A DNA stretch of 64,000 nucleotides, taken from assembly GCA_027082955.1 (NCBI GenBank), contig JALWTA010000010.1, positions 9,712 through 73,711 of the forward strand, written 5' to 3'. Position 1 is the first letter of the stretch; every line of letters starts with the position of its first letter. Under the pieces are notes generated by a model. It had not been told where the DNA came from. It saw nothing but the letters and a program-made list of their open reading frames with translations, and searched no databases. Source of the DNA: Sulfurovum sp. Lineage in GTDB: Bacteria; Campylobacterota; Campylobacteria; Campylobacterales; Sulfurovaceae. Of the stretch, positions 6,126 to 39,183 are shown in pieces. Made by a program: the position numbers and the translations under genes.

Positions 6126-6131
6126 TATAAT
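6126..6131 (+). promoter_or_regulatory. Candidate -10 box TATAAT for MBOAT copy 1, preceded by an A9 tract
   Basis: A consensus TATAAT lies 26 nt upstream of the TTG start at 6158. An A9 run (6113-6121) lies immediately upstream. This is the only intergenic gap feeding the plus-strand block from 6158 to 14189. Confidence 0.4.
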
Positions 6132-6152
6132 TGCCTAAAAATAAACGGGATA

Positions 6153-7342
6153 CGCCCTTGCTGTTCAACTCCTACGCATTCATTTTTTTCTTTCTGCCGG
6201 TAGTTTTTGCTGTTTATTTTTATCTTAACCAGAGACGGCTGACAGAGGCAGGCAAAGCCTTTTTGGTCGTAGCGTCTCTTTTTTTCTACGCCTGGTGGAA
6301 TGTAAGCTACCTGCCGCTGATACTGGTGTCGATGGTGGTCAACTATGCAATAGGAAGAGAACTGGCACGGCACCAAAAGAACAGAAGAAGCTACTCTCCC
6401 AAAAAACTGCTTGCCGCAGGTGTCGTGTTCAACCTTGGACTGCTGGGATACTACAAATATATGGATTTTTTCCTCGAGAACGTCAACCGCATATTCCATA
6501 GCCATATCCCTCTGCTGCACCTGGCACTGCCGCTTGCGATCAGCTTCTATACCTTCCAGCAGATCTCCTACCTCGTAGACAGTTACAGAGAAGAGACCAA
6601 AGAGTATGACTTTCTTAACTATGCACTCTTTGTGACCTTCTTCCCCCAACTGATCGCAGGGCCTATTGTTCACCATGCAGAGATGATGCCGCAGTTTGCC
6701 AAGACAAGGAACAAAGTAAAGCACTATTACAATATCGCTCTGGGGCTCTTTGTCTTTTCTATGGGGCTGTTCAAAAAAGTGATCATTGCAGATACATTTG
6801 CACAGTGGGCGACCCAGGGGTTCGATGTGTCAAAAGAGCTTAATATGCTCGAAGGATGGGTCACTTCACTCTCCTATACCTTCCAGCTCTACTTTGACTT
6901 CAGCGGCTATACCGATATGGCGATCGGTGCCGCACTGCTGTTCAATATCAAACTGCCGATCAACTTCTTCTCTCCCTACAAGGCAGTCAGTATTCAGGAT
7001 TTCTGGAGGAGATGGCATATTACCCTTTCACGCTTTTTGAAAGATTACCTCTATATTCCGCTTGGCGGGAACAGAAAAGGCAAAATGCGTACCTATATAA
7101 ACCTCTTTGTCACCTTTTTGCTCGGGGGTATCTGGCATGGGGCAGGATGGACTTTTGTCTTTTGGGGCACACTGCACGGCGCGGCACTGGTGATACACCG
7201 TTTCTGGCAGCAGATGGGTATGAAGATGCCTAAGATCCTTGGATGGTTCATTACTTTTAACTTTATCAATATCGCATGGGTCTTTTTCCGGGCAAACAGC
7301 TTTCATGATGCCTTGAAGGTCTTGAAGGGAATGTTCTTGGGT
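6153..7342 (+). repeat. Direct repeat copy 1 (1,190 bp), identical to 11191-12380
   Basis: I compared the two stretches base by base and found no mismatch. All sense and antisense ORFs inside the two copies are identical in the supplied track. Confidence 0.9.
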
Positions 7343-7612
7343 ACGTTTGTCTACCCGGCGGGACTGCCTTTTGCAGACATGGTCAAGCATTGGGGCGCTA
7401 TTGTAGGGAAGTGGAGCTATCCGTTCCTGAAAGAACCGATGATAGGTTATTGGCTTCTTGCCGGTCTGGTTGTCGTACTCTTTTTCCCCAACTCAATGCA
7501 ACTCAAAGAACGCTTCAAAACGAACAGCTGGTACCTGATGTTAACGGTACTCTTTTTCCTTTCGGTCTTTTTTCTGTACAGAAAGAGCGAATTTATCTAT
7601 TTTAACTTTTAA
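6158..7612 (+). CDS. MBOAT-family membrane O-acyltransferase (AlgI/DltB/PatA-like), copy 1
   Basis: I chose TTG 6158, which gives MLFNSYAFIFFFLP. That is the typical family start and equals the start of copy 2. The ORF track extends to TTG 6131. The protein is polytopic, with the MBOAT His in GGIWHGAGW and a C-terminal SEFIYFNF. Confidence 0.85.
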   Translation: MLFNSYAFIFFFLPVVFAVYFYLNQRRLTEAGKAFLVVASLFFYAWWNVSYLPLILVSMVVNYAIGRELARHQKNRRSYSPKKLLAAGVVFNLGLLGYYKYMDFFLENVNRIFHSHIPLLHLALPLAISFYTFQQISYLVDSYREETKEYDFLNYALFVTFFPQLIAGPIVHHAEMMPQFAKTRNKVKHYYNIALGLFVFSMGLFKKVIIADTFAQWATQGFDVSKELNMLEGWVTSLSYTFQLYFDFSGYTDMAIGAALLFNIKLPINFFSPYKAVSIQDFWRRWHITLSRFLKDYLYIPLGGNRKGKMRTYINLFVTFLLGGIWHGAGWTFVFWGTLHGAALVIHRFWQQMGMKMPKILGWFITFNFINIAWVFFRANSFHDALKVLKGMFLGTFVYPAGLPFADMVKHWGAIVGKWSYPFLKEPMIGYWLLAGLVVVLFFPNSMQLKERFKTNSWYLMLTVLFFLSVFFLYRKSEFIYFNF

Positions 7613-7623
7613 GGAGACGTAGC

Positions 7624-8589
7624 GTGACACCTAAAACATACCTCAAACGTCTCTTTGGCGCTTTGGCACTTATCTTCTTTGTTGCTGTTGGATATGTTGC
7701 CTATTTTAATACCTATTACCCTGTTCCGATCACAGATCATATCTCATTTGATGCTAAGCTGAAGTTCGCTAGAGAGAAGATAGACCCCGACGGAGTGGAT
7801 ACACTCATTATAGGTTCATCGATCGGTTTGAACGATCTGCTTGGCACCGAACTGGAAAGGCACTCAAAGCATATTCACAAAGCATTGAACTTTTCTGTTT
7901 ATGGTGCGACCACCCTTCAGGCGGAACAGATTATGGCGCTTATGGATGCCTTTCCTCATTTGAAACGGATCATCTACTCCGTACAGTACTCGGATATGCC
8001 GCACCTATGGAAGTTTAAAGACTATCATCCCAAAACATTGGTAAAATATATTCGTCATGAGCTGAATCCTTTTGCCTATTTGAAACTGCTCTTTGATGCC
8101 TGCAATAACCTGGAATTCTGTTATGAACGTCAGAAAAAGTGGGTTCCCGACCATATGCGGACCAATACGTTCGAGTCGCTGATCTTTGATCCAAGCGGCA
8201 GTGTACCGCTGCATATTTACGGCAAAGATATTATTTGGCACCGGTGGCATCTGCCTCATCCGGGTATCATGCACAGCGAATCGTTCCGGGCGGTTGGGCG
8301 AATGGCAAAAAAGGCACAAGCGCACGGCATCCGTTTTTATGTTGTACATCAGCCCTATCGGAAACCGCTGTATGACACACATAAATCGGTAAGAGATGCC
8401 ATGGCATATTTTGATGCCAAGGTAAAGGCGGCAATGCAGCCGTATAACGGAAAACTCATCCGCATTCAACCGCTTCATCTGGGCGATGCCTATTTTGCAG
8501 ACCGGACGCACCTCAATGACAAAGGCAGTCCGGTGGTTTCGGCCTATGTTGCTAAACAGATAGACAGACTTGAAGATCAAGACCATTAA
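7624..8589 (+). CDS. Membrane-anchored periplasmic SGNH/DltD/AlgJ-like protein, putative acyl-transfer partner of MBOAT copy 1
   Basis: 321 aa. GTG start 7 nt after AAGGAG. It has one N-terminal TM helix, a candidate nucleophile in LIIGSSIG and a DxxH block (ADRTHLNDKG) near the C-terminus. Its position directly downstream of an MBOAT gene matches the algI-algJ, dltB-dltD and patA-patB arrangement. Confidence 0.5.
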   Translation: MTPKTYLKRLFGALALIFFVAVGYVAYFNTYYPVPITDHISFDAKLKFAREKIDPDGVDTLIIGSSIGLNDLLGTELERHSKHIHKALNFSVYGATTLQAEQIMALMDAFPHLKRIIYSVQYSDMPHLWKFKDYHPKTLVKYIRHELNPFAYLKLLFDACNNLEFCYERQKKWVPDHMRTNTFESLIFDPSGSVPLHIYGKDIIWHRWHLPHPGIMHSESFRAVGRMAKKAQAHGIRFYVVHQPYRKPLYDTHKSVRDAMAYFDAKVKAAMQPYNGKLIRIQPLHLGDAYFADRTHLNDKGSPVVSAYVAKQIDRLEDQDH

Positions 8590-8599
8590 GGAGAGAACT

Positions 8600-9172
8600 A
8601 TGCAATTTACACGAACGAAGATCGAAGATGTGATCATCATTGATCCTGTAGTACATGGAGATGAGAGAGGCTATTTTGTGGAAACGTTCCGTCAGGACAA
8701 ACTGGAAGATTTTCTTGGTTTTAAAGTCAATTTTTGTCAGGACAATGAGTCTAAAAGCAGCAAAGGTGTGTTGAGAGGGCTGCACTATCAGCTGACACCG
8801 GCAGCACAGACGAAACTTGTGCGGGTGATCAAAGGACGCGTTTTGGATGTGGCAGTCGATATTCGAAAGGGCAGTCCGACATTTGGAGAGTATGTTGCAG
8901 TTGAACTCAACGAAGAGAACAAACGGCAGCTTTTTGTACCAAGAGGCTTTGCCCACGGGTTTGTTGTGCTTGAGGATGATACGGTCTTTGCCTATAAAGT
9001 AGATAATTACTATTCTCCGGAAAATGACAAGGGGATCGCTTTTGATGACCCTGCCATAGGCATAGATTGGCAGATAGACAAAGCATTGCTGAAACTTTCG
9101 GACAAAGATACAAAACAGCCGCTTCTAAAAGATGCTGACCTCTTTAGCTATGGAGAGAATCTTTATGCGTAA
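8600..9172 (+). CDS. rfbC: dTDP-4-dehydrorhamnose 3,5-epimerase
   Basis: The ATG at 8600 gives MQFTRTKIEDVIIIDPVVHGDERGYFVETF. Cupin motifs RGLHYQ, KLVRVxxGxVxDVAVDxR and VPxGFAHGF are present. The ORF-track start at 8570 is probably a spurious extension. Confidence 0.9.
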   Translation: MQFTRTKIEDVIIIDPVVHGDERGYFVETFRQDKLEDFLGFKVNFCQDNESKSSKGVLRGLHYQLTPAAQTKLVRVIKGRVLDVAVDIRKGSPTFGEYVAVELNEENKRQLFVPRGFAHGFVVLEDDTVFAYKVDNYYSPENDKGIAFDDPAIGIDWQIDKALLKLSDKDTKQPLLKDADLFSYGENLYA

Positions 9173-11189
9173 ACATATTCTTATTACCGGTGCGAACGGA
9201 CAGCTTGGAGGTGAATTCCGTTCTCTGGTGGACAACCGGGAACGTTTTGATACCTCCGATCACTATTTTTTCACCGATAGAGAAACACTGGATATTACCG
9301 ACAAAGAGGCTGTTGAAAACTATGTGATGCAGCACAATATTGATACGATCATCAACTGTGCTGCCTATACGGCGGTCGATAAAGCTGAGGAGGAGGAAGC
9401 ACTTGCCTATCTTATTAATCGTGATGCGGTCAGAAACCTGGCAGAAATTGCCAAAAAATATGATATACATCTGATCCATATCTCTACAGATTATGTGTTT
9501 GACGGTACAAGCCATACCCCTTTGTGTGAAACAGACAGTGTTAACCCCCAAGGTGTCTATGCCAAATCAAAATATGAAGGTGAAGCGGCTATCAGAGAAA
9601 TTGCACCTAAAGGTGCAATGATCATACGTACCTCATGGATCTACAGCAGCATGGGGCACAACTTTGTCAAAACAATGCTGCGCGTGGGCAGTGAACGGGA
9701 TGAAATACGTGTTGTGTGTGACCAGATAGGGACGCCAACCTATGCAAGAGATCTTGCGAGGGCAATTCTTACGATCATTGCATCAGAGAGCCAGAGCGAT
9801 GAAGTCAAAACGTATCACTACAGCAATGAAGGGAACTGCTCCTGGTACGATTTCGCACAGGCGATCTTTGAGATCGCACAGGTTGACTGCCGTGTTACTC
9901 CCATCAGTACCCATGAGTATCCGACACCGGCAAAACGTCCTTCTTACAGTGTTCTCAACAAAGATAAGATCAAATATGAGTATGGTCTTGACATCCCCTA
10001 CTGGAGAGATTCACTCAGGTCCTGTATCTCGCTGCTGGACTTCAAAGAGGTCAAGCGTTACAAGATCGGTATTATTGGTTCAGGTTTTATTGCCAACGGA
10101 TTGGCAAAACTGCTGCTGCAGCATCCTGACTATGAATTGAAAGCGGTATTGACCCGAAGTGATTTAAGCAAGCGCAGTGATTTTGTCAAACCTGAGGTAT
10201 TGACCAATGACCTTGAGGTATTGCTTGATACGTGTGATTTGATCGTAGAATGCAGCGGAGATGCCATCTATGCAACCGAGACGATCGACAGAATCATCAA
10301 AGAGGACATACCGGTTGTGACGATGAACTCAGAGTTTCATGTGACTACAGGTTCTTACTTTGTGGACAAAGGGTTGGTTACGGAAGCCGAGGGGGATCAG
10401 CCCGGTGTCGAGGCTATTTTGTATGAAGAGGCGCTGGCAATGGGCTTTAGACCATTGGCATTTGTCAATATCAAAGGTTTTCTGAATGAAAATCCGACAA
10501 GAGAAGAGATGGAGTACTGGGGTGGACGCTCAAATCTCTCCCTGGAAATGGTAACTTCGTTTACGGACGGAACAAAGGTACAGATAGAACAGGCACTTGT
10601 TGCCAATGGTCTTGGCGGATGTATTGCACAGGAGGGGCTGCTTAAGCTGAAAGATGACGACATGCTTCATGGCGGTACTATTTTGGCGGACAAGGCTAAG
10701 GAACTGGGCTGTCCGGTCAGTGACTATGTGCTCTCTCCAAAACTGCCTGCCGGTGTTTTTTTGGTGGTAGAACATGATGAAGAGCAGGCAGGATCACTGC
10801 GTTACTACAAACTTGGGGAAGGTCCCTACTATGTTTTGGAGCGTACTTATCATCTTTGCCATCTTGAGATCATTAAAACGATCAAACGGGTACTGGGCGG
10901 TGGTGGTGTCCTGCTAAATAACGGCAGTGATCCGAAATTGAGTGTCGCAGCCATTGCAAAACATGACATTATGCCCGGTGATACGCTGAAAAAGGGCATC
11001 GGCAGTTTCGATGTACGCGGCGAAGCGGTATATATTGAGAAGCATCCTGACCATGTGCCCATAGGACTGCTTGCTGATGCGACGTTTGTGCGTGAGGTTA
11101 AAGAAGGGCAGATCGTAACCTTTGCAGATGTGGAACTTCCGGAGAGTCTGGCGCTGGATATCTGGAAGCGTATGCACATCAAAGGCTGA
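9165..11189 (+). CDS. Fusion protein: dTDP-4-dehydrorhamnose reductase (RmlD) N-terminal domain plus a homoserine-dehydrogenase-like NAD-binding domain ending in a SAF domain (COG4091-like)
   Basis: ATG 9165 overlaps the rfbC stop (ATGCGTAA). Residues 1 to about 295 are RmlD-like: ILITGANGQLG, STDYVFDG, YAKSKYEGE, PTPAKRPSYSVL. A second Rossmann motif KIGIIGSGFIANG then follows, with EGDQPG and a C-terminal beta-clip-like SAF segment (IMPGDTL...VKEGQIVTFADVE). Confidence 0.7.
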   Translation: MRKHILITGANGQLGGEFRSLVDNRERFDTSDHYFFTDRETLDITDKEAVENYVMQHNIDTIINCAAYTAVDKAEEEEALAYLINRDAVRNLAEIAKKYDIHLIHISTDYVFDGTSHTPLCETDSVNPQGVYAKSKYEGEAAIREIAPKGAMIIRTSWIYSSMGHNFVKTMLRVGSERDEIRVVCDQIGTPTYARDLARAILTIIASESQSDEVKTYHYSNEGNCSWYDFAQAIFEIAQVDCRVTPISTHEYPTPAKRPSYSVLNKDKIKYEYGLDIPYWRDSLRSCISLLDFKEVKRYKIGIIGSGFIANGLAKLLLQHPDYELKAVLTRSDLSKRSDFVKPEVLTNDLEVLLDTCDLIVECSGDAIYATETIDRIIKEDIPVVTMNSEFHVTTGSYFVDKGLVTEAEGDQPGVEAILYEEALAMGFRPLAFVNIKGFLNENPTREEMEYWGGRSNLSLEMVTSFTDGTKVQIEQALVANGLGGCIAQEGLLKLKDDDMLHGGTILADKAKELGCPVSDYVLSPKLPAGVFLVVEHDEEQAGSLRYYKLGEGPYYVLERTYHLCHLEIIKTIKRVLGGGGVLLNNGSDPKLSVAAIAKHDIMPGDTLKKGIGSFDVRGEAVYIEKHPDHVPIGLLADATFVREVKEGQIVTFADVELPESLALDIWKRMHIKG

Positions 11190-11190
11190 T

Positions 11191-12380
11191 CGCCCTTGCT
11201 GTTCAACTCCTACGCATTCATTTTTTTCTTTCTGCCGGTAGTTTTTGCTGTTTATTTTTATCTTAACCAGAGACGGCTGACAGAGGCAGGCAAAGCCTTT
11301 TTGGTCGTAGCGTCTCTTTTTTTCTACGCCTGGTGGAATGTAAGCTACCTGCCGCTGATACTGGTGTCGATGGTGGTCAACTATGCAATAGGAAGAGAAC
11401 TGGCACGGCACCAAAAGAACAGAAGAAGCTACTCTCCCAAAAAACTGCTTGCCGCAGGTGTCGTGTTCAACCTTGGACTGCTGGGATACTACAAATATAT
11501 GGATTTTTTCCTCGAGAACGTCAACCGCATATTCCATAGCCATATCCCTCTGCTGCACCTGGCACTGCCGCTTGCGATCAGCTTCTATACCTTCCAGCAG
11601 ATCTCCTACCTCGTAGACAGTTACAGAGAAGAGACCAAAGAGTATGACTTTCTTAACTATGCACTCTTTGTGACCTTCTTCCCCCAACTGATCGCAGGGC
11701 CTATTGTTCACCATGCAGAGATGATGCCGCAGTTTGCCAAGACAAGGAACAAAGTAAAGCACTATTACAATATCGCTCTGGGGCTCTTTGTCTTTTCTAT
11801 GGGGCTGTTCAAAAAAGTGATCATTGCAGATACATTTGCACAGTGGGCGACCCAGGGGTTCGATGTGTCAAAAGAGCTTAATATGCTCGAAGGATGGGTC
11901 ACTTCACTCTCCTATACCTTCCAGCTCTACTTTGACTTCAGCGGCTATACCGATATGGCGATCGGTGCCGCACTGCTGTTCAATATCAAACTGCCGATCA
12001 ACTTCTTCTCTCCCTACAAGGCAGTCAGTATTCAGGATTTCTGGAGGAGATGGCATATTACCCTTTCACGCTTTTTGAAAGATTACCTCTATATTCCGCT
12101 TGGCGGGAACAGAAAAGGCAAAATGCGTACCTATATAAACCTCTTTGTCACCTTTTTGCTCGGGGGTATCTGGCATGGGGCAGGATGGACTTTTGTCTTT
12201 TGGGGCACACTGCACGGCGCGGCACTGGTGATACACCGTTTCTGGCAGCAGATGGGTATGAAGATGCCTAAGATCCTTGGATGGTTCATTACTTTTAACT
12301 TTATCAATATCGCATGGGTCTTTTTCCGGGCAAACAGCTTTCATGATGCCTTGAAGGTCTTGAAGGGAATGTTCTTGGGT
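11191..12380 (+). repeat. Direct repeat copy 2 (1,190 bp), identical to 6153-7342
   Basis: Same evidence as copy 1. The offset is exactly 5,038 bp. The repeat begins 1 nt after the TGA of the rfbD-fusion gene. Confidence 0.9.
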
Positions 12381-12680
12381 GATACAGATATGAAAACATA
12401 TCTTCAAGGACTCTATGACCAAGCAAATCCAATTGCACAATGGTTCAATCTTAATAGTGGTGCCTACCATGCACCGTTCAATCTGTTCGCTTTGGCAATG
12501 GTAATGGTGGGATTGTTGATTGTCCTGTTCTTCCCAAACTCCAATGAGCTTGCCGGTATTTTTCATGCGAAGAAGCGTGTTTCTTGGCGATATTATCTGT
12601 TATCGGTACTGCTGTTTGGTACCGCATTGGCAATGATGAGTGTTTCGCATGGATCTGAATTTCTCTATTTTAATTTTTAG
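11196..12680 (+). CDS. MBOAT-family membrane O-acyltransferase, copy 2 (identical to copy 1 for 395 codons, divergent last ~100 codons)
   Basis: 494 aa with a TTG start. It equals copy 1 through VLKGMFLG, then diverges and ends SEFLYFNF. Confidence 0.85.
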   Translation: MLFNSYAFIFFFLPVVFAVYFYLNQRRLTEAGKAFLVVASLFFYAWWNVSYLPLILVSMVVNYAIGRELARHQKNRRSYSPKKLLAAGVVFNLGLLGYYKYMDFFLENVNRIFHSHIPLLHLALPLAISFYTFQQISYLVDSYREETKEYDFLNYALFVTFFPQLIAGPIVHHAEMMPQFAKTRNKVKHYYNIALGLFVFSMGLFKKVIIADTFAQWATQGFDVSKELNMLEGWVTSLSYTFQLYFDFSGYTDMAIGAALLFNIKLPINFFSPYKAVSIQDFWRRWHITLSRFLKDYLYIPLGGNRKGKMRTYINLFVTFLLGGIWHGAGWTFVFWGTLHGAALVIHRFWQQMGMKMPKILGWFITFNFINIAWVFFRANSFHDALKVLKGMFLGDTDMKTYLQGLYDQANPIAQWFNLNSGAYHAPFNLFALAMVMVGLLIVLFFPNSNELAGIFHAKKRVSWRYYLLSVLLFGTALAMMSVSHGSEFLYFNF

Positions 12681-12689
12681 GAGCATGGC

Positions 12690-14189
12690 GTGAGCAAGAA
12701 ACGGTATATCTTTATGATGCTGGCAGGAAGTCTGCTCTTTTTGCTGGTGCTGCCTGTGTTCAATTATCTCCATGACCAGTGGCGCGTACTCCATCGGGAT
12801 TTTGCCTATGCCTATGATGATATTGCGATCAACAAATCCTACTTGAAAACAGTCTATCTTTTGGCACATCCAAACCGGTATGATACACTGTTGTTTGGTT
12901 CTTCCAGAAATGCAGCTTTTGTAGAGACCGATATTGCACCGCATGCCTACAATGCCTATGCTGATTTTGGTGTAATAGGACAACACCTGCATACGCTTGA
13001 GATTTTGCTGGGACACGGCTTGGCTTTGAAAGAAGTGTGGATAGGGATCAATGATTTTGATATATGGAAAGATCCTAAAGATTTTGAAAAGGACTATTCC
13101 AAGCGGGTGTATCATGAAGATATAGAGGGGATATTTGACTTTTACAGACTTTATCTGTTTAAGCCTGTTGACAACAATGACCTTGCCATTATGAAAGGCA
13201 AATTCAAATTGGCTCCAAGTAACCGAATTTACCGTAAAGCGCTTGACAAACACAGACAAACATTGATAGACAAAGAGAAAAGTTTGCAAGAAAAAGGTAT
13301 GCGCTGGCGTAAAAAACTTACTTCGACTGCCGCGACACTGCTTGGCTACAAGGATGATCCCAAACAGTACAGAATCTCAAAAAGTATCGATGAGATCAGA
13401 AGGATCAAGCGTCTTTGTCAAAAACATCATGTTAAAACGGTTTTTTTCTTCTACCCGGCATTCTACAAAACCTATATGATGTACAACCAGTCCAGAATAG
13501 AAACTTTCAAACGTAAACTGGCAGAGGTGACAGATTTCTACGATTTTTATCGTCTTGATGCGACTGCAATGGATGAAACAAAATGGACAGATACCAGCCA
13601 CTTTGTCTATAGCGTCGCCTTTCAAATGGTTCAGGATATTAAACATGGGAAGCATCTTGTAACACACAGTAACTGTGAAAGCGTATTGAGACAAGAGCGT
13701 CAAATGGCTACAGAACAGTTACTGCGTAAACAACTTCCAATACCGTATGTAATGCGTTTTAACGGTACGATCCTGCCAAGTGGAACCGATGTACTATTTG
13801 ATATGAAAAAGGGTAGTTATGTCCCAAATGTACAGACCAGAGTGCAGACTGACACTGAGGGCATCAAGGTGAAAAGTCTTGGTACTGATCCAAATTTGTT
13901 GTTTGGTCCGGTGCTTTCAAAAACGCAGAATGTGGTGTTACATTGTGAGATGACAAGTCAATACAAGACACTTTTTCAGCTTTTTTACAAGGTTGGCAAG
14001 GATGCCCGTTTCAATGAACATGATGCGGTTAAATTCGGGTTACACAAAGGGCTGAACCGTTTTAACCTGCTGATCCCTTCTGCTTGGCTAAGGTATGGTT
14101 TCCGCATGGATCCGGGGCAGAAACCCGGTGATTATTTGATCAAGAAAATGGAGATATTTGGAGAGAAAAAATGTGCTTCAGGAGAGTGA
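12690..14189 (+). CDS. Membrane-anchored periplasmic SGNH/DltD/AlgJ-like protein with an extra C-terminal beta-rich module, putative partner of MBOAT copy 2
   Basis: 499 aa. GTG start after AGGAG, with the same junction layout as partner 1. It has an N-terminal TM helix, LLFGSSRN and a TDTSHF (DxxH) block. Residues from about 385 to 492 form a module also seen in the 695-aa and 615-aa proteins. Confidence 0.5.
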   Translation: MSKKRYIFMMLAGSLLFLLVLPVFNYLHDQWRVLHRDFAYAYDDIAINKSYLKTVYLLAHPNRYDTLLFGSSRNAAFVETDIAPHAYNAYADFGVIGQHLHTLEILLGHGLALKEVWIGINDFDIWKDPKDFEKDYSKRVYHEDIEGIFDFYRLYLFKPVDNNDLAIMKGKFKLAPSNRIYRKALDKHRQTLIDKEKSLQEKGMRWRKKLTSTAATLLGYKDDPKQYRISKSIDEIRRIKRLCQKHHVKTVFFFYPAFYKTYMMYNQSRIETFKRKLAEVTDFYDFYRLDATAMDETKWTDTSHFVYSVAFQMVQDIKHGKHLVTHSNCESVLRQERQMATEQLLRKQLPIPYVMRFNGTILPSGTDVLFDMKKGSYVPNVQTRVQTDTEGIKVKSLGTDPNLLFGPVLSKTQNVVLHCEMTSQYKTLFQLFYKVGKDARFNEHDAVKFGLHKGLNRFNLLIPSAWLRYGFRMDPGQKPGDYLIKKMEIFGEKKCASGE

Positions 14190-14225
14190 AGCTGTTTTAG
14201 TCTTATTACCCTTCAGCTTTACTAT

Positions 14226-15410
14226 TCATATATGGAATGACGCGTTGTTTTTGGCTTTTCTGAACCTGCCGCGTTTCCCAAAAGTGATTCCCGGACGTTC
14301 GATGAAGAGATAGGTCAGGGAAGCAGTCAGCACCACGAGCACAACGATAATAGGCATCATATAGGTGTGCTGTGTAGCGCTGATGAGTTTCAGGTCAACT
14401 ACCTCAAATACTGTAAAGAGAATGTAGATGATTGCACCGTGCAGGAGGTAGATGCTGTAGCTTATCTCTCCAAGCAGCAAAGAAGCTTTTTTATGCATCA
14501 GTCCGAAGAGGGAATTGCCCCAGGCAATGGCGATAAAAAAGAGTGCTACCAGCGAAATGGGCAGGGGATCGTATATTTTTTTGTAAAATACCGCATATAG
14601 CAGGGCGATGGTGATTGCTGCGGAGACAAATGCATTGTCAATATAGCGAATGGGAATGCGCTGAATATGCCCGGAGAGCACTGCGGCAACCCCTCCGATG
14701 ACAAAAAAGACAAGATGGATCGTCTCAAATGCGTAAAAGGCATGATTTTCATAAAAATAAACGGCACCGCCAATTGCCAGCAGCAGAGCGATCCATCGGT
14801 TAAGGGTAATGACAAGTGCGATTAGCGGCAAGGAGAGGTAAAAAAGCCATTCATATTTGAGCGTCCAGTCCACTCCGGCAATGATCAGAGGAGTATGGTC
14901 GTGCGTATGAAGATTACCGCCATGAAAAAAAAGCCAATGGGTATATTGTTCCACCAGAGAAGAGATGTCGATACCGTGACGGTATTGCGGTTGCATGAAA
15001 ACCACGACACTGATGACAAAAATGGCAAACAGATAGAGTGGATAGATCCTGAAAATACGGGATTTGTAGAGTTTGATCCAGTCTGTTTTGTGTCTGTCTT
15101 TCATGATCTTGGCAGTAAAGAGATAGCCTGTGATCATAAAGAAGATCATCACACCTATCAGTCCAATATTCTGGAAATAGACCTCATGCGGGCGCCACCA
15201 GTGGGTCGTGTTCTTCCAGTACCATGTCAGCATGAAGTGGTGGGCGAAGACCGAGAGGGCAAGGTAGCCTCGCAGTCCGTCTATTGCACCGTAACGGCCA
15301 GTACGTTCATGCAGAAAAGCAAAACGCGAATGTCTGACAACAAGGCTGCCAAGCAGGTAGCTGACTACCAGCATCGTCATAAAAAATCCGATCTTTACAA
15401 TATCATCCAA
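14226..15410 (-). CDS. Acyltransferase family 3 (OafA/WecH-like) membrane O-acyltransferase
   Basis: 394 aa, about 10 TM helices. AT3 hallmark IDGLRGYLALSVFAHH near the N-terminus. Confidence 0.8.
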   Translation of the reverse strand: MDDIVKIGFFMTMLVVSYLLGSLVVRHSRFAFLHERTGRYGAIDGLRGYLALSVFAHHFMLTWYWKNTTHWWRPHEVYFQNIGLIGVMIFFMITGYLFTAKIMKDRHKTDWIKLYKSRIFRIYPLYLFAIFVISVVVFMQPQYRHGIDISSLVEQYTHWLFFHGGNLHTHDHTPLIIAGVDWTLKYEWLFYLSLPLIALVITLNRWIALLLAIGGAVYFYENHAFYAFETIHLVFFVIGGVAAVLSGHIQRIPIRYIDNAFVSAAITIALLYAVFYKKIYDPLPISLVALFFIAIAWGNSLFGLMHKKASLLLGEISYSIYLLHGAIIYILFTVFEVVDLKLISATQHTYMMPIIVVLVVLTASLTYLFIERPGITFGKRGRFRKAKNNASFHI

Positions 15411-15459
15411 AGGGGCTCTTTCAGGTTTTGGAGAAGTATAGCGAAATTTGTTGAGAAAA

Positions 15460-15468
15460 TGGTATAAT
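15460..15468 (+). promoter_or_regulatory. Extended -10 promoter element TGgTATAAT for the 695-aa membrane protein gene
   Basis: An exact TGnTATAAT lies 26 nt upstream of ATG 15495 (SD GGGGAG) in the divergent intergenic region. Confidence 0.45.
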
Positions 15469-15494
15469 GGCGAAGCTTTAAGGCGGGGAGAGAC

Positions 15495-17582
15495 ATGTTG
15501 CTACGGGAACTTTGGAAACGTAAAAAAGAATTTTTTATTGTATTTGGCTACTTTTTTTTGCTTGTCTCTGGCATGATCATGACACATCATACCTTTTTGG
15601 GTATTCAGGACGAGGCTCAGCTTCAGGCCACACTTAAAGCAGCAGATGTCTACAACTATATGACCAGCTATCCTCTCGCTCTGTTTGGCGGATGGCTTTA
15701 TACCCATTTCCCCCATGGACAGTGGTACAGTGTCATCATGACCTTCTATACGCTCTTTATGACACTGGTTATGAGTGGCTATATCATATTGCTTGATATC
15801 GAAAACAGATGGGGAAGATGGTTTATTAAAGGGCTTTTGCTTGCGCTTTTTACTCTTCTGACGGTCTATACACTGCTGGAGGTCGATGTGACCTCTCCGA
15901 CACTCTTGCTTATCGCTTTGGCAGTGCCGTTGGTCAAACGTCATCAGGTATGGTTTTGGTTTATTTTTTGGGTAGCGAGCTTTTTACGCGAACAGATCAT
16001 CTTTTCGGTCATACCGCTGGTTGCACTGGCATATGTTATCGGCTTTGACAGAACCTATTTTACGAACAAGCGCAAGATTGTACTTTCATTGCTGTTCGTT
16101 GCGGGAATTCTGTTCAACCATTTTTCCTATAAACTTGACAAAGGATACGCACAATGGATGGAGTTTACTGAAGCACGTGCGTTTTTTACCGATTTTAACG
16201 GCGGATACAGTCCTGTTTTGACACCCGATGAATATCATCTTGCCAAAACATGGTGGCTGCTTGATCGGGAACTCTACCCTGTAGCCAAGATCCCGAAAGC
16301 CGCGGGAAGCAAGGTCGATCTTGTCAAAGAGCGTTTTTTGCAAAATCATCCGAAATGGCAAGTCAGAGCAGTACTGATCAGACATCCTGAGATCAAAATA
16401 CTCTTTGCGCTCTCTTTGCTCATTGCGTTGCTCTACAGGAGCTGGTTGCGTTTTGGGGCATACGCACTGTTCGGTATTGGACTTATTGTGCTGTTGATTG
16501 TCAAAGATGTCGAACGGGTGACATTTCCGGTGCTTATTATGTGGTGGGTACTGTTGGCAACGGATCTGTGGCGCATCAGGGGCAATGTGTGGCTGCGGCG
16601 ATCTGCGGTGGGTGCAGTGGTGCTTATTGTGGCATGGTTGTGCTACTTTACCTACCGGACACTTCCCTTGGACAGGATCACCCATTTTGCCCAGAGAGAA
16701 GCGCTGCATAAAGAGTTTAAGGATATTATCGCTCGTAACCACATGCAACTGGAGATCACATCCGGATACCCGGCATCATGGGGCTTGCTGGTGGAAGCGT
16801 TGATGGAAAATCACCTGTTCGACGAAGCCAACTGGGCAGATTTCTACCATGATCTGCTGCTCTCAGGGTGGTTTACACAAAGCCCTATCTGCTACCGGCA
16901 GCATCAGATCAGTGCAGATGGGGTCAAACGGAAATATGCCACCTACTATGACTGGCTGATGGATCCAAATACCGGTATCATCGGTTCAAAAGGGGAACGC
17001 AGGCATGTTCATCCGTTTTTGGCAACGAAACTTATGGCACTCTATGATAAAAAACATCCAAAAAAAGGATTCCGTCATATTCCTGAGGTGGTCGATGAGA
17101 GTAAACATTTCATTATTCACCGTATCGTACAGACAGATGCCTTTATTACACGTGTTTCCCCTGTAAAAGATATAAAGCAGTATACGCCGTTGTGGCGTAT
17201 ATCCTCTGCATCTTCACTCAGACCCCATCACATGGCATGGAAAGAGGGAATACTGCATGCTACAGACAAAGATCCGTGGTTTTTCGTGACACTGCCGCAT
17301 AGCAAAAGCCGTTTTGTGCTGCTGGATGTTGACATAGAGATTCCAAGGGCGCATGACGAGATGCAACTCTTCTATAAAACATCGGACAAACGTCCCTACA
17401 ACGAGATCGATTCTGTAAAAATAAGACTGAAAAAGGGCTGGAACCATTTCCAACTGAAGATCCCAAGAGAATACCTTCAAAGAACAGTCAGAATAGATCC
17501 TTCCAATTATGCGGGGGAATACCGTGTGCGTTCTATAGCACTCTATCCGTATGCGGAAGAGAATGCTTCTATGCAAAAGTGA
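15495..17582 (+). CDS. Polytopic membrane protein with a large C-terminal extracytoplasmic domain, function unknown (candidate GtrC/GT-C-like transferase)
   Basis: 695 aa. About 10 TM helices span residues 1-390, followed by a soluble region ending in the shared beta-rich module (residues about 578-686). I recognised no family motif. The functional guess rests on context only. Confidence 0.3.
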   Translation: MLLRELWKRKKEFFIVFGYFFLLVSGMIMTHHTFLGIQDEAQLQATLKAADVYNYMTSYPLALFGGWLYTHFPHGQWYSVIMTFYTLFMTLVMSGYIILLDIENRWGRWFIKGLLLALFTLLTVYTLLEVDVTSPTLLLIALAVPLVKRHQVWFWFIFWVASFLREQIIFSVIPLVALAYVIGFDRTYFTNKRKIVLSLLFVAGILFNHFSYKLDKGYAQWMEFTEARAFFTDFNGGYSPVLTPDEYHLAKTWWLLDRELYPVAKIPKAAGSKVDLVKERFLQNHPKWQVRAVLIRHPEIKILFALSLLIALLYRSWLRFGAYALFGIGLIVLLIVKDVERVTFPVLIMWWVLLATDLWRIRGNVWLRRSAVGAVVLIVAWLCYFTYRTLPLDRITHFAQREALHKEFKDIIARNHMQLEITSGYPASWGLLVEALMENHLFDEANWADFYHDLLLSGWFTQSPICYRQHQISADGVKRKYATYYDWLMDPNTGIIGSKGERRHVHPFLATKLMALYDKKHPKKGFRHIPEVVDESKHFIIHRIVQTDAFITRVSPVKDIKQYTPLWRISSASSLRPHHMAWKEGILHATDKDPWFFVTLPHSKSRFVLLDVDIEIPRAHDEMQLFYKTSDKRPYNEIDSVKIRLKKGWNHFQLKIPREYLQRTVRIDPSNYAGEYRVRSIALYPYAEENASMQK

Positions 17583-17952
17583 AGTAGCGGTTAAGCAGAT
17601 AGAAAAGTGTACTGTAAATGACCATCCCGGCAAAAAAAGCGATATCCGTTGCTATAAGATGGTGTTCAACGATAAAGTGCAGACCGGCATAGCTTGCACC
17701 ATAGGAGATGCCAAATGAGAGTAAAAAGAGCGTAAACTCTTTTAGCTTGTTTTTGTTGCTGAAAAAGACGAACTGCCGATTGAGAAAAAAGCTGATGATG
17801 ATGCCAATGACGTAGCTTAGGAAATAGGAGAGCGAGTAGCTTAGTCCTACCAGATGAAAAAAAATGAGGATGACGGCATATCCTATAATGGTATTGACCA
17901 CACCGACCGCTACAAAACGCAGAAAGGTTTTGTCGATAAGAGGGAGGTTCAT
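17569..17952 (-). CDS. GtrA-family small membrane protein (polyprenyl-phosphate-sugar translocation)
   Basis: 127 aa, 4 TM helices. GtrA-like N-terminus FLRFVAVGVVNTIIGY. ATGA overlap with the upstream ydjC-like gene. Confidence 0.8.
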   Translation of the reverse strand: MNLPLIDKTFLRFVAVGVVNTIIGYAVILIFFHLVGLSYSLSYFLSYVIGIIISFFLNRQFVFFSNKNKLKEFTLFLLSFGISYGASYAGLHFIVEHHLIATDIAFFAGMVIYSTLFYLLNRYFTFA

Positions 17953-18758
17953 GATCGTCCTATAGAGAGTACAGCATCCAGCTCCACACGTCTGTCTGAA
18001 GAAATACGGTAGTCTTTTTCCCCATCATCATAGAAGTGTACTTCTGCATCGAGTTCAGGATAGCTTGGATGCACCATGGCTTCAAACGGTATAGACATTG
18101 TTTGAAGCTTCTGGAGAATTTCTTTGCCGACCACTCCGGTATACAGGATAGAGTAGAACGCACGCTCACCGTAGCGGTCTTCGTAACGGCTGTCTATCAT
18201 ACTGAAAGTGCGCAGCAGCAGATATTTTATGATGCCGCCATTGAGGATAAAATTGAAACGTTTGGAGAGGCGGAAGGATTGCAGCGGATTCTCTTTGATA
18301 AGTCTGATCCGATCGATACCGTAACGTTCTGCGAGTTTCACTGCTATGGGGTAAAGATGAGGAATGAGATGGACATGGCGGTGACTGTCAATGTGGGTGA
18401 GGGGGCGTGTAAACCCTGAAAAGGAGAGTACACGCTGGATCTGTGCTTCCCACTCTTTCTCAACCGCTGCAAGAAAATCGGGGTCCTTTTGGGTCAGTAG
18501 TGTTTTGTAGCCGAGATTAAAACAGCCATTCTCATCACAATAGAGAGCATTAGGAAGAAGTGCTTTTCCATAAGTCAGATTCAAGTGCATACCCACACCG
18601 AGTTCAGGACGTTTCAATGCCCCTTGCATCGCCTCATCAAAATAGTCACAGTTTGCCATGATACTGGCATGCGTGATACCGCCTTTATCGTGTCCGTCAA
18701 ATATGGCACGGTTGGCACCAGGAGTCATCCCAAGGTCATCTGCATTGACAATGAGCAT
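17949..18758 (-). CDS. YdjC/ChbG-superfamily carbohydrate deacetylase (NaxD/LgmC-like)
   Basis: 269 aa. It has the YdjC motifs LIVNADDLGMTPGANRAI and THIDSHRHVH. Confidence 0.8.
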   Translation of the reverse strand: MLIVNADDLGMTPGANRAIFDGHDKGGITHASIMANCDYFDEAMQGALKRPELGVGMHLNLTYGKALLPNALYCDENGCFNLGYKTLLTQKDPDFLAAVEKEWEAQIQRVLSFSGFTRPLTHIDSHRHVHLIPHLYPIAVKLAERYGIDRIRLIKENPLQSFRLSKRFNFILNGGIIKYLLLRTFSMIDSRYEDRYGERAFYSILYTGVVGKEILQKLQTMSIPFEAMVHPSYPELDAEVHFYDDGEKDYRISSDRRVELDAVLSIGRS

Positions 18759-19715
18759 CTATGCGACCTCTTCTTCAATGAAGTAGTGTGGTCTGCCTTT
18801 TGTCTCTGCGTAAATCTTCCCGATATATTCTCCAATGACGCCCAGCGCCAGCAGTTGAATACCGCCGATAAAGTAAAGCGGCAGTACGGTAGATGCCCAC
18901 CCCGGTACGGCTTCATTTGTAAAATAGACCGTATAAAGCACATCGAGTGAAAGAACAATACTGCCAAGAAAGATAATGAATCCCGTGATGGTGATCAGTT
19001 TCAGGGGGAAGAGGCTGAAGGAGGTGATCCCTGACCATGCAAAACTTAGCATCTTCTTGAGTGTATATTTGGATTCGCCTGCAAACCGTTCGGTGGTTTT
19101 GAAGTAGACTTTGGTCGTTTTGAGCCCAATCAGTTTGATCATGCCTCGAATGAAAAGGTTCCGTTCCTTGAACTGAAGGAAAAAGCTCAGTGCTTTATAG
19201 GACATCAACCGGTAATCTGCATGGTTGAATTCTATATCCACACCCATGAAGTGCATCAATGTATAGTAACCTTCAGCGGTCATTTTTTTAAAAAACGAAT
19301 CTGATTCTCTGTCTTCTCTGATACCGAGTACGACCTCATAGCCTTCACGGTATTTTTCCACCATGACCTCTACGGCATCCGGGTCTTGCTGAAGATCTGC
19401 ATCGAGAGATACCATGCAGTCTGTATGTGTTCTGTGGGCATATGCCATACCGGCAAGAAGCGCATGCTGATGCCCCTCGTTTTTGGAAAGCTTGATACCT
19501 TTGATAAACGGATAGGTGTCGGCATAGGAGGAGATCATCTCCCATGTAGCATCCTGACTGCCGTCATCTACGAAGACAATATAGCTTTTGCCAAGGATCT
19601 TGTGGGTATTGACCAGTCGGGTGTAGAGCTCTCCCAGACGTTTAACGGTTTCGGGGAGTACCTCCTCTTCATTGTAACAGGGAATAACAATGGCTAATGT
19701 AGGCAAGGTCGACAT
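18759..19715 (-). CDS. GT2 polyprenyl-phosphate glycosyltransferase (GtrB/ArnC-like)
   Basis: 318 aa. Motifs LAIVIPCYNEEE, FVDDGSQD, SLDADLQ, ADYRLMS and GESKY, two C-terminal TM helices, and GEYIGKIYxExKGRPxY. Confidence 0.85.
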   Translation of the reverse strand: MSTLPTLAIVIPCYNEEEVLPETVKRLGELYTRLVNTHKILGKSYIVFVDDGSQDATWEMISSYADTYPFIKGIKLSKNEGHQHALLAGMAYAHRTHTDCMVSLDADLQQDPDAVEVMVEKYREGYEVVLGIREDRESDSFFKKMTAEGYYTLMHFMGVDIEFNHADYRLMSYKALSFFLQFKERNLFIRGMIKLIGLKTTKVYFKTTERFAGESKYTLKKMLSFAWSGITSFSLFPLKLITITGFIIFLGSIVLSLDVLYTVYFTNEAVPGWASTVLPLYFIGGIQLLALGVIGEYIGKIYAETKGRPHYFIEEEVA

Positions 19716-21951: not shown

Positions 21952-23031
21952 TTATAGCGAATTTTCTACTTGTTTTCGCCATTTGAATCCACGTTCCTCT
22001 ATCTGATAGTAGCTTAGGGACGATATACCTAAAAGTGAAACAACGAAGATCGTGATGATCATAGGCATAGAAGGGTGGTGCGGAAGCAGATAGTGGTCGA
22101 TCAGAAAGAGAATGGGCATATGCCAAAGATAGACAGAGTAGGAGATTTTGCCTATCCATTCTATAAATCCTACACCTTTTGGATCACTGTTGAACAGAAG
22201 TATGAAAAGAGCACTGACGATCAGCAGCATAGCGATGTTTCTAAACAGAAAGCTCTCTTGCATGAAAGAGTATGTCGAAAGGTAGACAAAAAAAACACCC
22301 AGTGCTATAGCAAGTATGTATCGGATAGAAAAACCGATACGGGGTGTGTAGACGACATAGCGGTAGATCAGAATGCCACTGATGAAATAGATGATCTGAC
22401 CAGGAAGCTGAAATGAAAGATAGTATGCAATAAGCATATAGTTGCTTGCAGATCTGTCAAGGTGGAGAAGGGTATCATACCATCCCCGGTCGATACCGAA
22501 GAGATAGAGCATCCCTGCAAAAAAAAGTATCATAAGATAACGGCTTTTGTGTACATAAAGGAAAAGCAGCGGTGCAATGAAATACCAAAGCATTTCTACA
22601 TTGAGAGTCCAGTATGCACCATTGATACCATAACCGGCATCTTTGTAGATAAAGTACGAAGTAAATGTCAAGTGACTTAACAGTGATTTTAAAAATCCGA
22701 ATGAAATCGGATGTGAAATACCAAAGAAAGCACCGTAGAGCATAATGACAAAAAGAAGATTGGCATAGTAGGCAGGAAGGATCCGAAAGAGCCTGTGAAG
22801 CGCATAGCGAACAAGTCCGCGTTTAGGATTCTCCTGGGAGAGATAAAAACTGACAGAACGGTAGATGAGGTAGCCGCTGATGATAAAAAAGAGTGCCACT
22901 CCGAACTGACCGAAAAAGTGAATATAGCCAAATACCGGCTCTCCCATCAGGTGCAGTAGTACATAAAAATGATAGATAACAACACTGATGACTGCAATTC
23001 CCCGAAGAAGGTCTATTCCTTTCAATCTCAT
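21952..23031 (-). CDS. Acyltransferase family 3 membrane O-acyltransferase
   Basis: 359 aa. It has IDLLRGIAVISVVIYHF and about 10 TM helices. ATGA overlap with the upstream gene. Confidence 0.8.
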   Translation of the reverse strand: MRLKGIDLLRGIAVISVVIYHFYVLLHLMGEPVFGYIHFFGQFGVALFFIISGYLIYRSVSFYLSQENPKRGLVRYALHRLFRILPAYYANLLFVIMLYGAFFGISHPISFGFLKSLLSHLTFTSYFIYKDAGYGINGAYWTLNVEMLWYFIAPLLFLYVHKSRYLMILFFAGMLYLFGIDRGWYDTLLHLDRSASNYMLIAYYLSFQLPGQIIYFISGILIYRYVVYTPRIGFSIRYILAIALGVFFVYLSTYSFMQESFLFRNIAMLLIVSALFILLFNSDPKGVGFIEWIGKISYSVYLWHMPILFLIDHYLLPHHPSMPMIITIFVVSLLGISSLSYYQIEERGFKWRKQVENSL

Positions 23032-29524: not shown

Positions 29525-30481
29525 CTATTTGCCGATTTGCTCCAGATCACGTTTTATCTGTTCGACACGAAGCTCTTCAAGCAGTTTTCGGTTGACAGAG
29601 AGCAGGTCTGCTATAAAGGCGATCAGCCCTGTCTGAAAGCCCATTCCCATCAGTACACCGGCAAGAATGACCGACTGTATATGTCCTGCACCGTCCCCGG
29701 TAAAATAGAAGTATAGGTAGCGCAGTCCCAGCAGCAGTCCCAGGCCAAAAAGAACTGCAGCTATGCTCATAAAGAACTGGAATGACTTGTACACCACAGA
29801 GATACGTACAATGGTCACAACTGATTTTTTGATGTAGTTGGGAATGCTTGAAAGCAGTCTGGAGGGTCTGAGGTCTTCATTGGTGCGGATGGGAACTGAG
29901 GTGATCGCCATGTTCTTCTGACCCGCCTGAATGATGGTTTCCAGCGTATAGGTGTAGTTGTTGTAGACATTGAGCTGCATGGCACACTCGCGGCTCATTG
30001 CCCGAAACCCGCTTGGCGCATCAGGAATGTCAGTACGGCTGGCTTTTCGAACCACCCATGAACCGAGTTTTTGCAGAAATTTTTTGGCTGGGGAGAAGTG
30101 TTCTGTTTTGTCAATAGGACGTGCGCCTATGACATATTCTGCCTTATGCTCTAAAATCGGTTTGACGAGTTTAGGGATGTCCTTTGCCTCATACTGGTTG
30201 TCTGCATCGGTGTTGACTATGACATCAGCACCTTGCCTGAGACACTCTTTGATACCAGCCATAAAGCCCTTGGCAAGCCCTTGGTTGTGTTTGAAGTCAA
30301 CAATGTGGTCGACACCGCACTCTTTCGCTACCTTTACGGTGTCATCGGTACTGCCGTCATTGATAATGAGCCATTCGACGGTATCAAATCCCTCAACCTC
30401 TCTTGGCAGTGCTCCCAGTGCGATGGCAAGGGTTTCGGCTTCATTATAGCAGGGTATCTGGATGATGAGTTTCATGAACAA
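29525..30481 (-). CDS. GT2 polyprenyl-phosphate glycosyltransferase (DPM1/RgtE-like) with C-terminal TM helices
   Basis: 318 aa. Motifs IQIPCYNEAETL, IINDGSTDDT, TDADNQY and PSGFRA, plus two C-terminal TM helices. Confidence 0.8.
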   Translation of the reverse strand: MFMKLIIQIPCYNEAETLAIALGALPREVEGFDTVEWLIINDGSTDDTVKVAKECGVDHIVDFKHNQGLAKGFMAGIKECLRQGADVIVNTDADNQYEAKDIPKLVKPILEHKAEYVIGARPIDKTEHFSPAKKFLQKLGSWVVRKASRTDIPDAPSGFRAMSRECAMQLNVYNNYTYTLETIIQAGQKNMAITSVPIRTNEDLRPSRLLSSIPNYIKKSVVTIVRISVVYKSFQFFMSIAAVLFGLGLLLGLRYLYFYFTGDGAGHIQSVILAGVLMGMGFQTGLIAFIADLLSVNRKLLEELRVEQIKRDLEQIGK

Positions 30482-38392: not shown

Positions 38393-39183
38393 TAAAGTAC
38401 ATCCGAAAAATGAGGTCGTAGACGTTTAAATGTTTTCATACCTAGTAGGAAGACGATTATTGTAACGGACCAATAATAGAGTGTCATTTCACCTTTTTGC
38501 CAAAACCATTGGTGATAAATCATGCTATCCCTATATCCTTCAATGAGATAAACCATAGGATTGAGTTTGATAATCCAGTGGTATTTTTCCGGTATCATGT
38601 GAATCGACCAAAAGATAGGAGTGAGCCAAAAACCAAATTGTATCAGCATTGCTATGATCTGCCCCATATCTCTAAAAAATACTACTACAGACGAAGTAAT
38701 CCATGAAAGCCCTAGCAGTAAAACAATCATCGCAAACAGATAGTAAAAAACCTGTAACCAGTAGATATTTGGCATATACCCATAATAAAGAAACATACCG
38801 AACATAAAAAGAATAAAAAAAAGATGCACTATCAAAGAGGAAAAAATCGGAATGATTGGAAGTAAACTCACGCGGAATACGATCTTTTTTACAAGATAGC
38901 TATTGGCAATAATCGCATTTGTCGCATTTGTGAGTGCATCGGCAAAGAAAAACCAAGGCAGTATTCCGGTGATCAGCCATAAAATGAAAGGAAAGTTATC
39001 AACAGGTCTCGATTTGAAACCAACTTGAAAAACGAACCAAAAAATCAAAATAGTAGCCAATGGTTGGATAAATGCCCAGAGAATTCCTAAAAAATTTCCT
39101 ACATATTTCTGTTTTATATCATTTTTGATTAATGACCATAAAAGACGCCTATTCTCTGTAATAGAGATGAAATAACTATACAC
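38392..39183 (-). CDS. wzm: Polysaccharide ABC transporter permease (ABC-2 type)
   Basis: 263 aa, 6 TM helices. N-terminus LIKNDIKQKYVGNFLGILWAFIQP is typical of Wzm/KpsM/TagG. Confidence 0.85.
   Translation of the reverse strand: MYSYFISITENRRLLWSLIKNDIKQKYVGNFLGILWAFIQPLATILIFWFVFQVGFKSRPVDNFPFILWLITGILPWFFFADALTNATNAIIANSYLVKKIVFRVSLLPIIPIFSSLIVHLFFILFMFGMFLYYGYMPNIYWLQVFYYLFAMIVLLLGLSWITSSVVVFFRDMGQIIAMLIQFGFWLTPIFWSIHMIPEKYHWIIKLNPMVYLIEGYRDSMIYHQWFWQKGEMTLYYWSVTIIVFLLGMKTFKRLRPHFSDVL

Follow-up and report, generated by a model that had tools for sequence, protein, structure and literature searches.

A shared module in three proteins of a Sulfurovum polysaccharide cluster

The stretch of DNA analysed here, termed the window throughout, comprises 64,000 nucleotides of a Sulfurovum sp. 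contig (JALWTA010000010.1, positions 9,712 to 73,711 of the forward strand) and contains a Wzm/Wzt-type polysaccharide cluster. Three genes of the window encode otherwise unrelated membrane proteins, here designated A, B and C, which have in common a module of about 110 residues (Table 1). A preliminary description, obtained by reading the sequence, had pointed to a recurring pattern in these proteins. The three segments that it quoted are present in the translations exactly as given, and it is near certain that they are homologous copies of one autonomous domain.

The relationship between the A and B modules is evident from direct comparison. In blastp alignments they present 32 % identity over 102 residues (E 4.8e-11), and their Smith-Waterman score (z = 23) was attained by none of 2000 shuffles. 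The pairwise evidence for the C segment is weak, with blastp E-values of 0.087 against A and 0.03 against B (both alignments in register) and Smith-Waterman z-scores of 4.5 and 5.0, the real score being attained by 4 of 2000 shuffles for each pair. The preliminary description had proposed shuffled controls as a check of its claim, and the claim withstands them. For the C segment, the evidence provided by profiles is decisive in identifying it as a third, divergent copy. A hidden Markov model (HMM) built from A and B alone placed C third among 682 six-frame open reading frames (ORFs) of the window (E 4.6e-4, with the runner-up at 0.65). An HMM derived from a 63-sequence alignment of the family matched the A module over profile positions 2-109 (E 8.6e-36), the B module over positions 5-108 (E 7.3e-32) and the C segment over positions 32-108 (E 2.7e-10), the best ORF beyond these three scoring 0.69. 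No fourth copy was found among the six-frame ORFs of the window with either HMM, and the window hence holds exactly three copies. Comparison with hhalign aligned the family profile with C at 96 % probability (E 3.9e-9) and with a profile of 100 C orthologues at 97.8 % (E 6.9e-13). When the B and C families were compared by the same method, the module was the sole aligned region, and their membrane domains presented no similarity.

We count C as a true copy because the HMM and hhalign statistics settle the weak pairwise scores. It is very hard to credit that the likeness of C to A and B reflects chance or composition and that only A and B share the module. Such a reading can draw on the blastp E-values of the C pairs and on the replacement in C of two near-invariant glycines (Glu at the Gly of K-G-x-N and Thr at the Gly of G-x-Y), but it is already refuted by the profile statistics, by the scarcity of shuffles attaining even the pairwise scores and by the independent detection of the permuted first strand described below. 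As a negative control, the family profile was also aligned with the C-terminus of the window's own Wzt (Wzt_C), an unrelated domain, yielding a probability of just 1.9 %. A recent duplication of the module within the genome was likewise considered and rejected. Far from being mutual nearest relatives, the A and B modules rank 92nd of 190 and 42nd of 188 in each other's comparisons.

Table 1. Module copies, module-bearing proteins and associated genes in the window (positions are those of the window; TM, transmembrane helix).
Feature	Position	Strand	Remarks
Module copy 1, C-terminal domain of protein A (aa 386-492)	13845-14165	+	linear strand order
Module copy 2, C-terminal domain of protein B (aa 582-685)	17238-17549	+	linear strand order
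Module copy 3, core (protein C, aa 30-106)	32017-32247	-	strands 3 to last, directly after TM1
Module copy 3, permuted first strands (protein C, aa 133-154), EVSFNTTGADPHLAMNL	31873-31938	-	after core, before TM2
Protein A (499 aa)	12690-14189	+	N-in membrane anchor, SGNH-like putative acyltransferase domain, module
MBOAT acyltransferase paired with protein A	11196-12680	+	Pfam MBOAT, E 1.1e-40
Protein B (695 aa)	15495-17582	+	polytopic membrane domain, soluble region of ~190 aa, module
GtrA-like gene adjoining B	17569-17952		
YdjC-like deacetylase adjoining B	17949-18758		
GT2 adjoining B	18759-19715		
Protein C (615 aa)	30487-32334	-	TM1, permuted module, TM2, GT-C-like polytopic core
GT2 directly downstream of C	29525-30481	-	Pfam Glycos_transf_2, E 5e-22
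Wzt (with Wzt_C binding module) and Wzm, ABC polysaccharide exporter	37061-39183	-	

Circular permutation of the module in protein C

The family profile matches protein C only from column ~32 on, immediately past the first transmembrane (TM) helix. Because the first strands missing before the core recur downstream of it, as judged from profile, conservation and tandem-unit evidence, the sequence data indicate that C holds the whole module in circularly permuted order, between two N-terminal TM helices. The strands bearing the G-x-DP motif sit ~28 residues beyond the core, and the full module spans approximately nucleotides 31873-32247. The coordinates proposed in the preliminary description for this copy (32017-32247) are correct for the core, but leave out the first strands and hence missed the permutation.

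Several lines of evidence bear on this assignment. A sub-HMM of the first 30 family columns returned the site at residues 133-154 as its best non-self match in the window, a match that is weak when taken alone (E 0.88). The F-x-TTG-x-DPQL motif is kept at this position in 100 C orthologues, and hhalign aligned residues 106-165 of the C-orthologue profile with family columns 3-25 (93.9 %, E 1.5e-7). A second match in the comparison of the B and C families, joining B residues 589-609 with C residues 143-163, gave the same pairing. Furthermore, four metagenomic proteins (P0056, P0075, P0107 and P0147) carry two or three tandem units of the C-type design ahead of their catalytic domains. In each unit a TM helix precedes the core, and a linker of ~35 residues connects the core to the G-x-DP strand, beyond which lies the second TM helix. 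The tandem arrangement of these TM-bracketed cassettes suggests that the permuted form is itself a mobile unit.

A large module family associated with glycopolymer enzymes

An exhaustive HMMER search of 1.84 billion cluster representatives, with the three window segments combined into a profile, returned 826 representatives at E<=1e-3, of which 110 at E<=1e-10. It was this exhaustive search, rather than a word-indexed one, that revealed the family: word-indexed searching returned no match for the B module by itself, and one protein only when the 63-sequence alignment served as query. Among the best 150 of the 826 representatives, the module unit measures ~105-115 residues and occurs once in 98 proteins, twice in 36, three times in 15 and four times in one, with the last copy ending at the protein C-terminus in 130 of the 150. 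The family is present in Campylobacterota and Methylococcales, and its cluster members are annotated as "hypothetical protein".

The copies present a clear signature, G-x-DP ... Q-x-F-Y ... Y-x-E-x-x-S ... K-G-x-N ... P ... R-x-D-P-G-x-x-x-G-x-Y, in which D, P, G, R, D and G are each kept in at least 93 % of 196 copies, and Q, N and Y in ~84 %. The A and B modules hold this signature in full (G-x-DP, Q-x-F-Y, E-x-x-S, G-x-N, R-x-D-P and G-x-Y). Protein C retains G-x-DP (residues 144-147), Y-Y, E-x-x-S, N and R-x-DP, and lacks two of the glycines and the last Tyr.

The preliminary description could name no Pfam family for the pattern, and our searches agree. No Pfam model covered the module at E<=1 in the three window segments or their proteins, none covered it in 74 full-length relatives, and no family recurred at E<=1 among 63 excised modules. 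NCBIfam gave no match over the module in the window proteins. Sequence searches of the PDB returned nothing significant with the module profiles and no usable match with the A family, B or C as queries. Below the significance threshold, residues 225-261 of 4jx0_A aligned with columns 72-107 of the module profile (E 0.27), with a motif (N-x-L-x-I-x-L-P ... F-R-L-D ... G-S-Y-x-L-K) strikingly like that of the module. This structure, labelled "hypothetical protein", may be a remote solved relative.

The domains that accompany the module are diverse. In the 74 relatives, Pfam identified AlgX-type SGNH domains in 23 proteins, DHHW in 7, GT2 or GT4 in 4, sulfatase-like domains in 3, and YfhO, GtrII and PIG-L in 2 each. 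Other hosts include GT4-GT2 enzymes with two C-terminal copies, a GT2 enzyme with three copies, a sulfotransferase and a surface protein with SLH and FN3 domains. The module is thus found on cytoplasmic-type (GT2, GT4-GT2) as well as extracytoplasmic enzymes and is not confined to the periplasm. As read from sequence, the common denominator of these partners is glycopolymer chemistry. The data support the proposal, made in the preliminary description, of an accessory domain grafted onto different enzymes, and indicate that the module is a shuffled domain recruited repeatedly by enzymes of cell-surface glycopolymer synthesis or decoration.

Predicted fold of the module

The excised A module was modelled with AlphaFold2 using the 63-sequence alignment, giving a confident prediction (predicted local distance difference test, pLDDT, 94.3; predicted TM-score, pTM, 0.83). 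This run superseded a poor model obtained with three sequences only (pLDDT 60.8). In the model, nine strands form an all-beta sandwich accompanied by one short helix, in agreement with the beta-sandwich anticipated from the sequence pattern.

A Foldseek search of the PDB with this model returned no match at E<=1e-3. The top matches were carbohydrate-binding modules (CBMs) of the jelly-roll type, namely BiXyn10A CBM1, CBM16, CBM4, CBM6 and a hyaluronan-binding module, and others included the jelly-roll of a CE2 esterase, domain III of a Cry toxin and the ligand-binding domains of Eph receptors. E-values ranged from 1.7e-3 to 2e-2, TM-scores from 0.43 to 0.59 and root-mean-square deviations from 4 to 7 Å, with identities mostly of 6-13 % and up to 18 % for the Eph domains. 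Among viral models, the neighbours were phage receptor-binding and CenC-like modules. On the basis of this model, it is near certain that the predicted fold belongs to the class of CBM-like beta-jelly-rolls and lies outside any solved family.

Gene context of the module-bearing proteins

Protein A contains the motifs LLFGSSR and D-T-S-H-F, following an N-terminal anchor that is its one TM segment predicted from hydropathy. Across eight homologues, G70-S71-S72 and H304 are invariant and Asp301 is mostly kept, a set resembling the catalytic residues of SGNH-like enzymes. With the full-length A family as query, eight related loci were located in Sulfurovum, Nitratifractor, Arcobacter and other Campylobacterota, and in seven of them the gene immediately upstream of the A homologue encodes an MBOAT protein. 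Since the catalytic domain of A gave no sequence match in Pfam (including the ALGX model), NCBIfam or the PDB, we infer its putative role as an SGNH-like acyltransferase from these motifs and from the gene context.

Protein B presents about 11 TM helices by sequence reading, with a QDE motif in the first outward loop. It has no Pfam or PDB match, and its only NCBIfam match is a weak one below cutoff to the AZOBR_p60025 cell surface glycopolymer formation family (E 5e-5). The preliminary description had listed B as an unknown membrane protein, which holds as far as Pfam is concerned, but its gene context is informative. The adjoining GtrA, YdjC and GT2 genes, which in the window lie on the minus strand, are kept, in two genomes, beside B and beside a 49 %-identical orthologue in a metagenome (P0084, locus L010). 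This four-gene set resembles the GT2, YdjC (NaxD-type) deacetylase and GT-C route for addition of galactosamine to lipid A. The NaxD step of that route has been described (PMC11279074). By analogy, the B set resembles a route by which lipid A or a polysaccharide would receive a de-N-acetylated amino sugar, and, because of the likeness to this scheme, B is probably the GT-C-like membrane transferase of such a pathway.

Protein C has no Pfam match of its own at E<=1, and a few of its ~100 orthologue clusters are flagged as PF13231 (PMT_2) or PF09913 (DUF2142). A YPPDELAH motif lies, by sequence reading, in the outward loop after TM3. These features point to a PMT_2-like GT-C as its putative catalytic identity. 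The gene order around C is kept as Wzm, Wzt, methyltransferase, multi-GT2, C, GT2 and GT4. The GT2 gene next to C, which holds the same position in two orthologous loci (L011 and L012), is a candidate polyprenyl-phosphate-sugar synthase that may supply C. In the window, an apiosidase-like glycoside hydrolase gene with a DUF5060 N-terminal domain (32523-34211, minus strand) lies between the 911-residue multi-GT2 gene and C. Because it is absent from the orthologous loci, where C either follows multi-GT2 directly (L011) or is separated from it by other genes (L012), it looks like an insertion into the kept gene order.

Comparison with known accessory modules

Accessory binding modules have been described on few envelope-glycan tailoring enzymes (AlgX, EmbC, AftD and the GT136 enzyme ORF12), and they can affect the efficiency with which surface polysaccharides are decorated. 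AlgX is an SGNH-like alginate O-acetyltransferase that works with the MBOAT protein AlgI, and its C-terminal CBM, like that of ORF12, has been described as tethering the substrate. Protein A presents a comparable layout, as a putative periplasmic SGNH-like partner of an MBOAT protein followed by a C-terminal beta-sandwich module, and the Pfam ALGX SGNH domain precedes the module in 23 of the 74 relatives. This likeness is one of analogous position only. The module matches no Pfam model, AlgX-based ones included, AlgX is not among the top 50 Foldseek matches in the PDB, protein A lacks a match to the ALGX model, and copies of the module often occur two to four in tandem.

A functional parallel for B and C is provided by ORF12, the GT136 GT-C of Citrobacter youngae O1. 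Its C-terminal CBM binds unmodified O-polysaccharide, just as EmbC and AftD each have a CBM that binds the acceptor (PMC11127046). ORF12 would share with B and C the setting of a periplasmic GT-C in a Wzm/Wzt O-polysaccharide cluster, the use of a GT2-made polyprenyl-phosphate sugar and the presence of a beta-rich module. Its module differs, in a comparison by description only, in being C-terminal, immunoglobulin-like and ~150 residues long (residues 503-652); that of C is N-terminal, permuted and bracketed by TM helices. The nearest folds, those of the CenC-like CBM4/9/16/22 group (4mgs, BiXyn10A CBM1; 2zez, CBM16; 1gu3, CBM4), share with the module a jelly-roll topology class (TM-scores of 0.5-0.59) and the role of an appended substrate-binding module, which for the module is predicted. 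They differ from it in size (140-150 residues against ~110) and lack its signature, with identities of 6-12 %, Foldseek E-values of at least 1.7e-3 and no profile match. Wzt_C (PF14524) also has a beta-sandwich fold and, within the same pathway, binds polymer of the same class (PMC11127046), but it is cytoplasmic and recognises the chain terminus. An appended binding module on a glycan-tailoring enzyme is thus an already known concept; the family described here is large and appears both undescribed and unmodelled.

Proposed function of the module

The reading that we favour, with a probability of about 0.6 for the statement as a whole, is that the module is a substrate-tethering, CBM-like domain that would bind sugar and hold glycopolymer enzymes on their polysaccharide. 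By binding the polysaccharide chain it would keep the catalytic domain near its polymeric acceptor, which might raise local substrate concentration or processivity. In the window, the three module-bearing enzymes would act at the outer face of the inner membrane, within the Wzm/Wzt-type cluster, the polysaccharide of which is presumably the substrate that they modify. A would do so as the SGNH-like partner of the MBOAT acyltransferase, B as a GT-C-like transferase fed by the GT2, the YdjC deacetylase and the GtrA protein, and C as a PMT_2-like GT-C with the adjacent GT2 as feeder. The module is a C-terminal appendage with linear strand order in A and B; in C, the two extra N-terminal TM helices would hold the permuted module at the membrane surface, beside the GT-C active site. 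On a crude hydropathy analysis, the positive-inside rule and sequence reading, each of the three copies would lie at the outer face of the membrane, as the preliminary description had predicted.

Two features of the family fit this proposal. In ABC-transporter pathways the polysaccharide chain is one ligand available on both membrane faces, and the occurrence of the module on enzymes of both faces is hence consistent with such a chain as its ligand. The tandem arrays of modules, in turn, fit avidity-based binding to a polymer.

Several observations weigh against a tethering role. The polar signature is near-invariant regardless of the partner enzyme, which is unusual for CBMs of differing glycan specificity, and the conserved polar residues could instead constitute a structural metal site or the binding site for a common non-glycan ligand, be it a protein, a lipid carrier or the membrane. 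The structural likeness to CBMs is distant (best E 1.7e-3, TM-scores of 0.57-0.59, 7-12 % identity), and the presence of Eph ligand-binding domains and viral capsid proteins among the Foldseek matches means that a jelly-roll does not by itself imply sugar binding. Moreover, the fold model covers the A module alone, not the permuted copy of C. Finally, the CBM of ORF12 is dispensable in vivo (PMC11127046), so that the role of the module may be subtle even if it is a true CBM.

These observations lend some weight to alternatives, each of which we consider much less probable than tethering. The module could be a protein-protein docking or assembly domain that brings its hosts not to a glycan but to each other or to a partner that they have in common, for example the export machinery. 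The partner-independent conservation of the polar residues, suggestive of a conserved ligand, the protein-binding jelly-rolls of Eph receptors among the structural matches and the occurrence of the module on three tailoring enzymes of one cluster are all compatible with docking. We nonetheless regard it as unlikely, given that the hosts are very diverse, ranging from cytoplasmic GT4-GT2 enzymes to a Gram-positive-type SLH surface protein, YfhO, PIG-L and sulfotransferase proteins, that the module is present in Campylobacterota and Methylococcales alike, and that no single protein partner is plausible across all these contexts. In addition, arrays of two to four tandem copies are typical of avidity-based polymer binding, and related loci contain only one module-bearing gene.

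Of similarly low probability is that the module recognises a feature shared by the substrates, such as the undecaprenyl-(pyro)phosphate end or the membrane surface, or serves as a metal-stabilised spacer that sets the distance between catalytic domain and membrane. This would account for a signature kept whatever the catalytic partner. It also agrees with the inferred position of the G-x-DP, S-P-x-x-T, K-G-x-N and R-x-DPG loops, which strand alternation in the model would place at the same end of the sandwich, and with the location of the C-type form between two TM helices at the membrane surface, repeated two or three times in some proteins. Most copies, however, are found at the distal C-terminus of soluble domains, as part of long tandem arrays or on the SLH/FN3 protein, where they are not obviously close to the membrane, and no lipid-binding fold is found among the Foldseek neighbours. 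A more speculative extension, to which we give slightly less credence than to either of these, envisages, in place of a polymer-specific CBM, a recognition module of universal scope, in which the near-invariant D-P, K-G-x-N and R-x-D-P-G loops would make up a single apical site, possibly metal-assisted. Its ligand would be either a feature shared by all nascent lipid-linked glycans or the export conduit as such, and it would marshal acyl-, glycosyl- and sulfo-transferases and deacetylases onto the same chain at either membrane face, with the TM-clamped permuted version as a dedicated membrane-surface form.

Substrate tethering, as favoured here, does not imply that the three copies of the window recognise the same glycan. 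The preliminary description had suggested that the module ties the three enzymes to a common polymer or site, and this part of it was not borne out. The A and B modules are distant from each other within the family, as noted above, and the enzyme families concerned carry the module singly elsewhere. In other genomes, the ±8-10 kb around homologues of A, B and C contained no further module-bearing gene, which indicates that several modules per cluster is not a general rule. A shared polymer specificity of the three copies is hence not supported by their sequences.

The delimitation of a family of at least 826 sequence clusters that is unmodelled in current domain databases marks hundreds of "hypothetical" proteins as glycopolymer-associated, and with a family profile O-antigen, capsule and teichoic-acid-type clusters would be better annotated, above all in poorly studied Campylobacterota. 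The confident predicted fold and the clear signature provide targets for mutagenesis, and the permuted module between two TM helices represents an unusual mounting of a binding-like module on a GT-C enzyme. If binding were confirmed, the family would probably constitute a new CBM family.

Acyltransferase genes surrounding protein A

The MBOAT gene paired with protein A has a close counterpart in the window (6131-7612). The two genes have in common a 1194-nucleotide stretch (6149-7342 and 11188-12380) with 99.9 % DNA identity, and because their 3' ends diverge the encoded proteins are 87 % identical overall. From this pattern, the 5' 80 % of the gene appears to have undergone duplication or gene conversion recently. 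Each MBOAT gene is followed by a different SGNH-like partner, the upstream one (7624-8589) lacking the module and presenting no detectable similarity to protein A. Between the two MBOAT pairs lies a gene (9132-11189, plus strand) for a 685-residue fusion of an RmlD-type dTDP-4-dehydrorhamnose reductase domain and a DRL-type oxidoreductase (NAD_binding_3 and DRL_cat). The window also contains two AT3-family acyltransferase genes (14226-15410 and 21952-23031, minus strand), the products of which share 24 % identity. Together with the two MBOAT systems, these indicate that the cluster encodes four separate membrane acyltransferase systems.

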